Shown one piece after another: positions 7,722-9,761 of a DNA stretch of 23,652 nucleotides. Source of the DNA: Naegleria gruberi. Lineage: Eukaryota. Location: NCBI GenBank assembly GCA_000004985.1, contig GG738952.1; one strand, 5' to 3'. Position numbers and translations under genes: made by a program. The first letter of the stretch is position 1. Each line of letters opens with the position of its first letter. The notes beneath the pieces were generated by a model, which saw only the letters and a list, made by a program, of their open reading frames with translations, was not told the DNA's origin and did not search any database.

Positions 7722-9761
7722 TCAAATAACTTCAAGCATAGCAAAGTAATTATCAATGGATAGAGTAAAGTTATTCTTGCAATAATTGATTAGATATTGA
7801 ATTTCATGTTTCATTGCCATATCAAGTAATCCAATAATTTTAACAGCATCAATTTTGTCAATTGAAATTCTATAACAATATTTGATCACAATTTCCAATA
7901 ATTCCAAATCTTCTGATTCGTCAGGTGTGAATATTCCATCATCACTCAAATCACTGAAACAAGATCCACTGTCAAATAATGCATTAAACAATGTACTTGA
8001 TGAACTCAATACAGTTTTGTGACAATATAAGTATTTGTTTTGTCCCATTTTGATTTTTACATCACTTGTTTTCATATCACCATATAATGATTCAATTGTT
8101 TGTGGTTCATTTTCAATTGTTTCCTCAATATTAATTGCAGTTGGTTCAGTAATGATCATTTTTGGAAATATGGCAGTAGCATTTCTCATAATTATTGGAA
8201 GAGTCGATAATAAAGTGTTTCCTTCTTTTGTTTGCATTTGAACAGCAGCATATTCAATGCAATGGTTATTCAATTGATCGAGAATGTAATTTTGAATACC
8301 AAATTCCTCTTTGCAAGTTTTGAGTAAATTTTCAATTGTTTCCCATTTGAAAGTAAGATTTTCTAATGTGAATGAGTTCACAAATTCACTTGTCAATGAT
8401 CTTTTCAAATCAATAAATTCACCATTCTTAAATAAACCCAAAATGAATAAAACATCCAACACTTCTTCTTTGCTAAACTTTACCTTGTTCTTATCATACA
8501 GCAAAGAATCAATTAATTTTTGAATAATTTCTTGTTGTGATGAACTCATCAAACAAAGCATCTTTTCATTCTTCAAAATATTACTAAATTTTGGTGAAAT
8601 TTTTTCAATGAGTGGAATGAATCCATAAATTTGAAATCCAAATAATTGATCTCTTGAATGTTTTTTCAAATTATATTCTATTTTGGAGTACAAGCTACTA
8701 TTTCCAGTTAATAACTTATTTCCAATATGAGGATACATTATAATATTAAAAGGTGAATCACCACTGAATCCAGCAGTTCCATTTCCTGCAATTGTTACAA
8801 TATTTCCATTTTCTAATATTTTTCTAATTCTTTGATTACTTTGATCAGAAATATAAACTTCATTATTTGAAACAAAAACACTATTAGGCCTATTCAGTTG
8901 TGCATTTGTTGCAGGACCATTATCACCACTGAATCCATAATTTCCATTTCCAGCAATTGTTATAATATTTCCATTTTCCAATATTTTTCTAATTCTTTGA
9001 TTACTTTGATCAGAAATATAAACTTCATTATTTGAAACAAAAACACTATTAGGCCTATTCAGTTGTGCATTTGTTGCAGGACCATTATCACCACTAAATC
9101 CATAATTTCCATTTCCTGCAATTGTTACAATATTTCCATTTTCCAATATTTTTCTAATTCTATGATTGCTATAATCAGTAATATAAACTTCATTATTTGA
9201 TGAAACAAAAACACTATAAGGATTATACAATTGTGCATTTGTTGCAGGACCATTATCACCACTGAATCCATAAGTTCCATTTCCAGCAATTGTTATAATA
9301 TTTCCATTTTCTAATATTTTTCTAATTCTGTTATTATGTTGATCAGTAAAATAAACTTCATTTTTCGATGAAACAAAAACACTAGAAGGATTATAAAGTT
9401 GTGCATTTGTTGCAGGACCACTATCACCACTAAATCCAACAGTTCCATTTCCAGCAATTGTTATAATATTTCCATTTTCCAATATTTTTCTAATGCTATG
9501 ATTGCTATAATCAGTAATATAAACTTCATTCTTTGATGAAACAAAAACACTACAAGGATAATTAAATTGTGCATTTGTTGCAGGACCATTATCACCACTA
9601 AATCCATAATTTCCATTTCCTGCAATTGTTACAATATTTCCATTTTCTAATATTTTTCTAATTCTATGATTACAAAAATCAGCAATATAAACTTCATTAT
9701 TTGATGAAACAAAAACACTAGAAGGATTAAACAGTTGTGCCCTCGTAACTAGTGAAGACAT
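7722..9761 (-). CDS. NHL-repeat beta-propeller protein with C-terminal BTB/POZ domain
   Basis: ATG at rc 9759-9761, stop rc 7722-7724, 679 codons. Six repeats of 55-56 aa with the NHL signature (SVFVSSKNEVYITDYSNHRIRKILENGNIVTIAGNGNYGFSGDNGPATNAQL). C-terminal residues about 540-650 match the BTB consensus (DVKIKMGQNKYLYCHKTVLSSSSTLFNALFDSG...). A15 tract lies directly upstream of the ATG. Confidence 0.75.
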   Translation of the reverse strand: MSSLVTRAQLFNPSSVFVSSNNEVYIADFCNHRIRKILENGNIVTIAGNGNYGFSGDNGPATNAQFNYPCSVFVSSKNEVYITDYSNHSIRKILENGNIITIAGNGTVGFSGDSGPATNAQLYNPSSVFVSSKNEVYFTDQHNNRIRKILENGNIITIAGNGTYGFSGDNGPATNAQLYNPYSVFVSSNNEVYITDYSNHRIRKILENGNIVTIAGNGNYGFSGDNGPATNAQLNRPNSVFVSNNEVYISDQSNQRIRKILENGNIITIAGNGNYGFSGDNGPATNAQLNRPNSVFVSNNEVYISDQSNQRIRKILENGNIVTIAGNGTAGFSGDSPFNIIMYPHIGNKLLTGNSSLYSKIEYNLKKHSRDQLFGFQIYGFIPLIEKISPKFSNILKNEKMLCLMSSSQQEIIQKLIDSLLYDKNKVKFSKEEVLDVLFILGLFKNGEFIDLKRSLTSEFVNSFTLENLTFKWETIENLLKTCKEEFGIQNYILDQLNNHCIEYAAVQMQTKEGNTLLSTLPIIMRNATAIFPKMIITEPTAINIEETIENEPQTIESLYGDMKTSDVKIKMGQNKYLYCHKTVLSSSSTLFNALFDSGSCFSDLSDDGIFTPDESEDLELLEIVIKYCYRISIDKIDAVKIIGLLDMAMKHEIQYLINYCKNNFTLSIDNYFAMLEVI
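8740..9756. repeat. tandem array of six 165/168-bp units encoding the NHL repeats
   Basis: Units beginning 8821 and 8986 are essentially identical over 165 bp. The other units are about 85-95% identical by eye. Confidence 0.8.

Follow-up and report, generated by a model that had tools for sequence, protein, structure and literature searches.

Probable concerted evolution of six NHL units, with a few diverse codons in each, in an NHL-linker-BTB gene of Naegleria gruberi

The window analysed here, a stretch of 23,652 nucleotides from contig GG738952.1 of the Naegleria gruberi assembly GCA_000004985.1, carries on its minus strand the single-exon gene NAEGRDRAFT_76287 (7722-9761; 679 amino acids), which encodes a series of NHL units followed by a linker, a helical domain and a BTB domain. 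Our data suggest that the six NHL units of this gene, each about 168 bp long, probably evolve in concert, with the scaffold of the unit being homogenised and about nine codons per unit being diverse, and that the protein likely has the role of a Cullin-3 (Cul3) adaptor. Short gene-conversion tracts, together with occasional unequal crossovers, would keep the scaffolds of the blades nearly identical, synonymous sites included, and exchange would probably also take place between the many paralogous copies of the gene. The unit count would be held at six, the number that closes the propeller, and the nine or so codons that escape homogenisation would turn over quickly; a regime of homogenisation would in this way diversify the recognition surface of an adaptor.

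The open reading frame (ORF) at 7722-9761 is identical (100%) to the N. gruberi protein XP_002668792.1/D2W4F6 (P0001), and its N-terminal 336 residues match the Pfam families NHL (PF01436, 101.5 bits; curated cut-off 20 bits) and TEN_NHL (PF25021, 110.6 bits; curated cut-off 27.1 bits). Tandem Repeats Finder, one of the checks proposed in the first-pass annotation of the window, reports one strong array at 8757-9740 (period 168, 5.9 copies, 90% matches, no indels), and a repeat search recovered six copies spaced by 165, 165, 168, 168 and 168 bp. Placed by unit register and by an AlphaFold2 model, and numbered from the N terminus on the minus strand, the units are unit 1 (9588-9755; residues 3-58), unit 2 (9420-9587; residues 59-114), unit 3 (9252-9419; residues 115-170) and unit 4 (9084-9251; residues 171-226), each of 168 bp, followed by unit 5 (8919-9083; residues 227-281) and unit 6 (8754-8918; residues 282-336), each of 165 bp and thus one codon shorter than units 1-4. 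Unit 1, with modelled strands at residues 13-18, 24-28, 33-37 and 43-47, has the N-terminal cap 'SLVTR' at a place that otherwise reads 'GPATN'; unit 5 is without one Ser codon in 'SVFVS-NNEVY', and unit 6 ends in 'GFSGDS', after which the protein continues with 'PFNIIMYPHIGN'. Array, spacing, ORF and Pfam matches all agree with the earlier proposal that six NHL repeats are encoded by tandem units of 165/168 bp, the lengths being 168, 168, 168, 168, 165 and 165 bp over 8754-9755.

Pairs of units compared in blade register share 82.4-94.5% of their DNA (mean 88.1%), in keeping with the earlier description of most units as differing at a minority of sites. Amino acid identity between the six units averages 81.4% (range 69.6-92.7), with units 5 and 6 at 93% and units 4 and 5 at 87%. 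Where two units have the same residue, they use the identical codon at 626 of 676 positions (92.6%), compared with 53.5% expected from codon usage in about 2,400 codons of the other ORFs of the window, and a single codon is used across all six units in 32 of the 37 invariant-residue columns, where 5.4 would be expected. The proportion of synonymous differences (pS; Nei-Gojobori) among the six units ranges from 0.03 to 0.26, with a mean of 0.15. This high identity of codons and DNA across the array implies that all six units, and not two alone, have recent nucleotide ancestry in common.

The differences that remain among the units (45 variable columns in 168) are arranged as a mosaic. For example, 'GTA...GCA' is found in units 1, 4 and 6 and 'ATA...GCT' in units 2, 3 and 5, and the likeness of units 5 and 6 over their 5' two-thirds cuts across this grouping. 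In the four-gamete test, 63 of the 105 informative site pairs fail, which calls for a minimum of seven events (Rm=7), whether exchanges or recurrent mutations, in the space of 168 bp. Units 5 and 6 agree at 22 consecutive variable sites and then disagree at nine of the last ten (permutation p=0.0002; Fisher p=3.6e-7); they have in common a discrete, recent exchange tract that is offset from the blade boundaries. On the offset-165 diagonal this tract contains an exact match of 116 bp, one copy of which covers the end of unit 5 and the first two-thirds of unit 6 (8815-8930), the other the end of unit 4 and the first two-thirds of unit 5 (8980-9095). The first-pass annotation had described the units starting at 8821 and 8986 as virtually identical, which is right in so far as 162 of 165 positions match and the 116-bp run is exact; the near-identity, however, belongs to a tract of 116-165 bp that does not coincide with a blade, and blades 5 and 6 taken whole are 94.5% identical. 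Among the unit pairs besides 5-6, none was individually significant in the permutation tract tests (p=0.036 for the 2-4 pair).

A second species gives the same picture. An exhaustive representative search with the C-terminal half of the protein found NHL-BTB proteins in Naegleria lovaniensis (P0127 and P0188) and on environmental contigs. The genes of P0127 and P0188 occupy 6001-8214 of locus L002 and 6001-8217 of locus L003 (PYSW02000044.1); L003 opens with a further, incomplete NHL-BTB gene (1-1392), so that the family is locally clustered in this species. The gene for P0127 (L002) contains an array at 6062-7052 (period 168, 5.9 copies, 91% matches), and within-gene unit identity is 82-97%, with pS of 0.08-0.15, in both the N. 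gruberi window gene and N. lovaniensis. Between the species, all 72 unit pairs are 70.9-76.8% identical (pS of about 0.41), below the least similar within-gene pair in every case. At twelve nucleotide columns each gene is uniform across its six units while the window gene and P0127 differ from one another; three of these columns are synonymous (ATT/ATC, ACA/ACC and GGT/GGA). The units thus group by gene and species and not by blade position. The genes of P0127 and P0188 are separated by about 37 kb. Their identity is 99.57% outside the array and 100% in each of units 2-6, and it falls to 91.1% in unit 1, of which nucleotides 37-168 in P0188 match unit 3 of the same gene exactly. Unit 1 of P0188 is therefore a conversion event that postdates the duplication that gave rise to the two genes.

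These comparisons bear on the simplest alternative, that there is no homogenisation at all and that old blades look alike through purifying selection on the NHL scaffold combined with a bias towards A/T-rich codons. The genome has a G+C content of about 29%, the scaffold codons have a low ratio of nonsynonymous to synonymous differences (pN/pS 0.28-0.34), and the scaffold residues are conserved even in comparison with bacterial proteins (45-57% identity), all of which would fit such a reading. Nevertheless, we regard it as extremely improbable, because the identity of codons for the same residue (92.6%) far exceeds what codon bias gives (53.5%), cross-species pS is three to four times within-gene pS, synonymous substitutions have become fixed across all six blades of each gene, and an environmental relative of the same architecture (P0126, locus L001) has diverged blades in which a tandem-repeat search found no DNA-level repeat. 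Codon bias as the sole cause is ruled out by the first three of these observations.

Concerted evolution of this kind would extend well beyond the window gene. NHL-BTB genes form a family with at least about a dozen members in N. gruberi, besides the further copies in N. lovaniensis and on environmental contigs. A search with the full-length protein recovered N. gruberi paralogs of the same architecture (P0003, P0004, P0006, P0016, P0048, P0056 and others), and a word-indexed search with the C-terminal half gave four matches, all from N. gruberi; we found no description of the Naegleria NHL-BTB family in the searchable literature. The N. gruberi paralogs were compared at the protein level, using 58 complete units cut from 11 proteins. 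On these protein sequences, sharing a position in the propeller makes units of two paralogs no more alike than units at different positions (81.1 vs 78.9%, 77.5 vs 75.3% and 71.5 vs 70.1%). Some residues are common to every unit of one gene, such as 'AV' and 'QQGY' in P0016 and 'GLAT' in P0004 and P0006. Units 5 and 6 of P0003 carry the same one-codon deletion as those of the window gene (the 55-residue state), so this deletion is either older than the recent tract in the window gene or has been exchanged between paralogs. In P0004 (NAEGRDRAFT_82333), which likewise has six units, units 3 and 5 match in protein at 100% of positions and the pairs 2/4 and 4/6 at 89-91%; this two-unit periodicity points to a recent duplication or conversion of two units within a six-unit paralog.

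Every apparently intact family protein examined in the two species has six units. The first-pass annotation had allowed for a blade number that varies between haplotypes or strains; the only gene models that depart from six are those of P0035 (three units), P0002 (four units and a chimeric second part), P0006 (five units and a fraction, with an extra fragment of 20 amino acids) and P0123 (internal skips); these come from a draft assembly, are truncated, chimeric or internally spliced, and are hence suspect. The first-pass annotation had offered two accounts of the array, homogenisation by gene conversion or unequal crossing-over and a very recent repeat expansion. The former is borne out by the tract shared by units 5 and 6, the mosaic arrangement of variable sites, the grouping by gene and species and the fresh conversion in N. 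lovaniensis, whereas the latter is not supported, given six units in all apparently intact members from two species and the 165-bp state in P0003. A recent step from five to six units in particular is rejected because P0003 has the same 55-residue state at positions 5 and 6 and because the six-unit count is general in the family.

A different kind of amplification deserves consideration. Recently amplified propellers, WRAP among others, have blades that are near-identical in nucleotides (Afanasieva et al., 2019, PMC6805158; Pereira and Lupas, 2022, PMC9218822), and positions that are fixed within one propeller but differ in its homologues have been taken as a sign of independent amplification, the number of blades often being unequal in close paralogs (Pereira and Lupas, 2022, PMC9218822). 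About 84% of the eukaryotic cases in that survey are fungal, and NHL has 0 occurrences in it (PMC9218822). The 12 columns that separate the window gene from P0127, three of them synonymous, are exactly of the kind to which the nucleotide criterion of Pereira and Lupas refers, and the 100% identity of units 3 and 5 in P0004 amounts to a perfect two-unit duplication at the protein level. Each propeller might accordingly have been re-amplified recently and independently from one blade, the blades being alike since they are young. We consider this unlikely on several grounds. The similarity of the units is not star-like, as the spread of pS values in the window gene shows, and the units form a mosaic; exchange between units 5 and 6 took in only a portion of a unit and does not respect blade boundaries; the event in N. 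lovaniensis replaced a portion of a single unit when the gene was already six units long; the 55-residue state of units 5 and 6 occurs at the same positions in the window protein and in P0003; and the count of six is shared by all apparently intact members in two species. Unlike the recently amplified propellers, the Naegleria genes thus combine a constant count with a mosaic similarity (63/105) and exchange by tracts, and the mosaic pattern together with the constant number of blades is a better fit to exchange than to wholesale re-amplification. Partial re-amplification via unequal crossover grades into the concerted exchange that we prefer.

The variation that does persist is concentrated at a small number of positions. 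Across the 58 units, entropy peaks at alignment columns 11, 12, 14, 28, 30, 31, 33, 52 and 53, which sit in three motifs ('AQL-xx-P-x', 'x-D-xx-N-x' and 'GNG-xx-G'), and the remaining columns are almost invariant. In the window gene, the proportion of nonsynonymous differences (pN) at these nine codons is 0.41 against a pS of 0.18, while pN/pS of the scaffold codons is 0.34 when all 56 unit codons are taken into account and 0.28 without the five codons of the N-terminal cap. Applied to the DNA of N. lovaniensis, the nine positions defined in N. gruberi give a pN of 0.39-0.40 and a pS of 0.07-0.09, and the codons that vary between units overlap in the two species (8-10, 12, 27, 28, 30, 49, 50, 52 and 56). 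Paralogs whose post-NHL parts are 84-86% identical agree at about 90% of scaffold columns but at only 28-30% of hypervariable columns when units at the same position are compared. Selection may be what keeps the nine codons different. Neither the restriction of variation to about nine codons per unit nor the family-wide extent of the phenomenon had figured in the first-pass annotation.

Modelling of the propeller, also proposed there, returned six blades. The AlphaFold2 model, built on an alignment of paralogs, has 24 strands in six sets of four over residues 13-325, mostly with a predicted local distance difference test score (pLDDT) above 90, and the NHL region is accordingly predicted to be a closed six-bladed propeller. 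In Foldseek searches the propeller matched the teneurin-like protein 9ifo (48% identity, root-mean-square deviation 1.9; phmmer E=1e-113), with template-modelling scores of 0.83 for NHLRC2, 0.85 for Pizza6 and 0.79 for PknD within an overall range of 0.79-0.88, and SOQ1, teneurins and TRIM71 were further matches among solved NHL structures in the Foldseek and phmmer searches. In its fold and six blades the Naegleria domain resembles the PknD sensor domain of Mycobacterium tuberculosis (1rwl), the Pizza6 designs derived from it and 9ifo, all of which have unusually high sequence symmetry among the blades. PknD and the teneurin-like protein differ from it in being extracellular or bacterial sensor domains without a BTB domain, and no connection has been drawn between their symmetry and hypervariable positions or a family of paralogs. 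As a separate observation, the protein encoded by the NHL units (8754-9761) shares 45-57% identity with long NHL proteins ('TIGR03437 family') from bacteria, Acidobacteria among them, and the remainder of the protein has relatives in Naegleria only; the bacterial likeness could reflect a bacterial origin of the blade or merely a consensus-like blade.

In the model of unit 2, strands A to D span residues 69-74, 80-84, 89-93 and 98-103, and the variable residues are 67, 68, 70, 83, 85, 86, 88, 107 and 108. All nine variable positions fall in the D-to-A connection, at the start of strand A, at the end of strand B or in the B-C loop, and the A-B loop ('SSNNE') and the C-D loop ('ENGN') are invariant. 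By the convention for propellers, the top face bears both the D-to-A connection and the B-C loop, and the opposite face bears the A-B and C-D loops. From strand order and this convention, and not from coordinates, the variable residues would be placed on one face of the modelled propeller and the invariant loops on the other.

The C-terminal half of the protein points to a possible function. Downstream of the propeller on the minus strand, a linker modelled with low confidence (residues 337-380) leads into an all-helical domain (residues ~378-536; linker and domain together at 8154-8753, from pLDDT and DSSP). This helical domain is conserved within the Naegleria NHL-BTB family; homologue searches returned family-specific matches only, and a Pfam scan gave no family match for it. 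It is followed by a BTB/POZ domain (7770-8072; residues 564-664), which scores 38.8 bits against PF00651 (curated cut-off 20.5 bits). The ORF of the window copy is cut at residue 679, and the C-terminal part was modelled on the 99%-identical copy P0077, which has a full-length C-terminal half. The model (pLDDT 85; predicted template-modelling score 0.80) contains helices after the BTB domain, and its best Foldseek matches are SPOP BTB plus 3-box (4j8z), the vaccinia A55 BTB-BACK module with Cul3 (6i2m), KBTBD2-Cul3, KLHL11-Cul3 and KEAP1, the alignments to 4j8z and 6i2m extending over 163-177 columns; the BTB domain itself matches those of SPOP, A55, KBTBD2, KLHL11 and KEAP1. Because the order of domains is like that of SPOP and the C-terminal matches are to the BTB modules of Cul3 adaptors, NAEGRDRAFT_76287 is probably a Cullin-3-type substrate adaptor with a variable recognition face.

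As in SPOP and other MATH-BTB proteins, an N-terminal recognition domain precedes the BTB domain and a helical 3-box/BACK-like extension, the last of which is seen in the model of P0077; in Cul3 adaptors this extension has a part in Cul3 binding. The expanded MATH-BTB families of nematodes and plants have reportedly undergone adaptive evolution in the substrate-binding domain, and the Naegleria genes likewise form a lineage-specific multigene family in which the recognition domain changes faster than the BTB part. The two systems differ in the recognition domain, which is an NHL propeller in Naegleria and MATH in SPOP, and in the additional helical domain of about 160 amino acids that stands before the BTB domain in Naegleria but not in SPOP; the window copy, moreover, has lost its tail through a frameshift. 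BTB-Kelch proteins also have a propeller, but it is C-terminal to the BTB domain.

The frameshift becomes apparent on comparison with close relatives. Relative to P0077 and all paralogs, about 26 nucleotides encoding 'CENYFDLQL' are absent after 'AMLEV' in the window gene, and this deletion shifts the frame so that the ORF ends at 7722. The next frame downstream of 7722 still encodes a 44-residue tail that is 100% identical to that of P0077, an out-of-frame remnant of the conserved C-terminal tail ('FEQFLREILKFSIVNRKQLFIDQNRISKLPEKFWQEILKLSQDF*') at 7591-7726/7730 on the minus strand. The tail deletion reflects either a truncating allele or pseudogene of very recent origin or an error in sequencing. 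P0077 (NAEGRDRAFT_74322, on a 236-kb scaffold) is identical at 334 of 337 residues across the C-terminal half, and its gene model begins exactly past the NHL array. P0123 (NAEGRDRAFT_75816, on a 190-kb scaffold) is 100% identical to residues 308-678 of the window protein, and its upstream part has a different NHL array, modelled with internal skips. On three scaffolds there are thus post-NHL parts that are 99-100% identical to the window gene with NHL arrays that differ or are absent from the gene models, and the window scaffold may represent either another haplotype of the P0123/P0077 loci or a duplicate that arose from them very recently. A literature search on heterozygosity and haplotype scaffolds in N. 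gruberi returned nothing usable.

Such copies raise the question of whether the near-identity of units 5 and 6, or the entire array, is an artefact of assembling a small, gap-rich draft scaffold. Several runs of N occur in the window, the NHL arrays of P0077, P0123, P0002 and P0006 are missing, spliced or chimeric in the gene models, the window gene is frameshifted downstream of its array, and analogous fungal arrays could not be reconstructed from short-read assemblies. On the other hand, 7722-9761 contains zero N bases and the ORF is intact across the array. The exact tract is only 116 bp long, and distinguishing differences (45/168 columns) occur throughout, so that reads of several hundred bases would be able to place each unit. 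The model, in addition, closes as a confident six-blade propeller, and the independently assembled N. lovaniensis has the same array of 5.9 copies of 168 bp with equal internal identity. The lack of N bases, the shortness of the exact tract, the dispersed distinguishing sites and the independent array in a second species make an artefact very unlikely. That NHL arrays are prone to collapse in assembly, as the first-pass annotation had also suspected for this region, is nonetheless plausible by analogy with the fungal arrays; in three near-identical N. gruberi copies the arrays are broken or missing in the gene models.

Several points weigh against our interpretation of a homogenised but diversifying adaptor. 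The frameshift costs the window copy its last ~54 residues (nine deleted and the 44-residue tail out of frame), and the window allele may have lost its function, or a base may have been called wrongly. An excess of pN over pS between repeats can also arise if old blade-specific residues persist while conversion erases their synonymous neighbours. The nine codons were picked after inspection of the data, which makes the test on N. lovaniensis only partly independent, and the DNA comparison covers a single gene of N. gruberi and two genes of N. lovaniensis that are almost alike. The latter are distant members of the family and not established orthologues of the window gene (their C-terminal halves are 34.7% identical to that of the window protein), and it is thus from distant relatives that we infer the maintenance of six units since the species split. 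The link of family members to Cul3 or to ligands, finally, is drawn from structure prediction and analogy.

The closest parallel to this regime is found in fungi. In the repeats of fungal NLRs (WD40 in het-e, het-d and nwd of Podospora; ANK; TPR), concerted evolution acts within and between paralogs, WD40 repeats have about four hypervariable positions each, located on the binding face and with pN > pS, and the arrays resist assembly (Dyrka et al., 2014, PMC4986451; Ament-Velasquez et al., 2025, doi 10.1101/2025.01.13.632504). The Naegleria genes resemble them in having units kept alike in concert, a few variable positions on what would be one face of the propeller, a paralog-wide occurrence and a difficult assembly. 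They differ in the repeat, which in Naegleria is NHL (56 amino acids, six blades) and in the fungal NLRs WD40, ANK or TPR, in the partner domain, which is BTB instead of a NACHT/NB-ARC NOD module coupled to a death or HET effector, and in the organism, a heterolobosean amoeba. Repeat-number polymorphism is typical of the fungal loci, but none is seen among the intact Naegleria genes, and RIP-type mutation does not apply to Naegleria. The mean amino acid identity of the Naegleria units (81%) is also slightly below the threshold used for high internal conservation in fungi (>85% over at least 100 residues; Dyrka et al., 2014, PMC4986451). A Pfam scan of NAEGRDRAFT_76287 found NHL and BTB only, with no NOD (NACHT/NB-ARC) STAND module; because it has no such module the protein is not an NLR, and the likeness is limited to the evolutionary regime.

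Elsewhere in the window, a run of 15 T residues on the plus strand (9762-9776; A15 on the coding strand) directly adjoins the ATG of the NHL-BTB gene. The minus strand carries at 14819-16792 an intact ORF of 657 amino acids with a match to piggyBac-type DDE transposases (PF13843, E=5.7e-34). On the plus strand, an ORF whose sequence resembles the N terminus of actin (11677-12051) adjoins one that matches the C-terminal half of actin on the minus strand (12065-12559; PF00022, E=5e-32) and that overlaps the 3' end of a long Cys/Pro-rich ORF (12471-14315); the pair looks like a rearranged actin fragment or a misassembly. Runs of N that mark assembly gaps lie at about 3040-3990, 5690-6270, 17650-19070 and 21430-21760, with short ones near 4820, and the genes that are interrupted by gaps include an Hsp70 fragment (3983-4801), a DUF4116-repeat protein (16962-20207) and a pair of LRR proteins (20649-22179).

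Coding repeats that evolve in concert while retaining hypervariable surface sites are a known route to diversity, which has been documented mainly in fungal NLRs and in some bacterial propellers. The Naegleria locus does not open a long-standing question, and its biological role is one that we infer; it extends the pattern to NHL repeats, to the context of a BTB protein that is probably a Cul3 adaptor and to a heterolobosean amoeba, and it provides a compact two-species example in which conversion tracts are directly visible. It also carries a warning, in that draft Naegleria assemblies are likely to contain faulty models of the NHL arrays in this family and that ordinary orthology or dN/dS analyses across blades would mislead. 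More speculatively, and as a suggestion that we hold to be doubtful though worth stating, the NHL-BTB family might be a rapidly diversifying repertoire of intracellular Cullin-3 adaptors, in which concerted evolution would hold the propeller scaffold constant and some 54 surface residues per protein would be tuned to ligands that change, such as the proteins of bacteria or of giant viruses met by the amoeba. If true, the fungal NLR receptors with high internal conservation would have, in a distant lineage of eukaryotes, a counterpart built on ubiquitin ligases.

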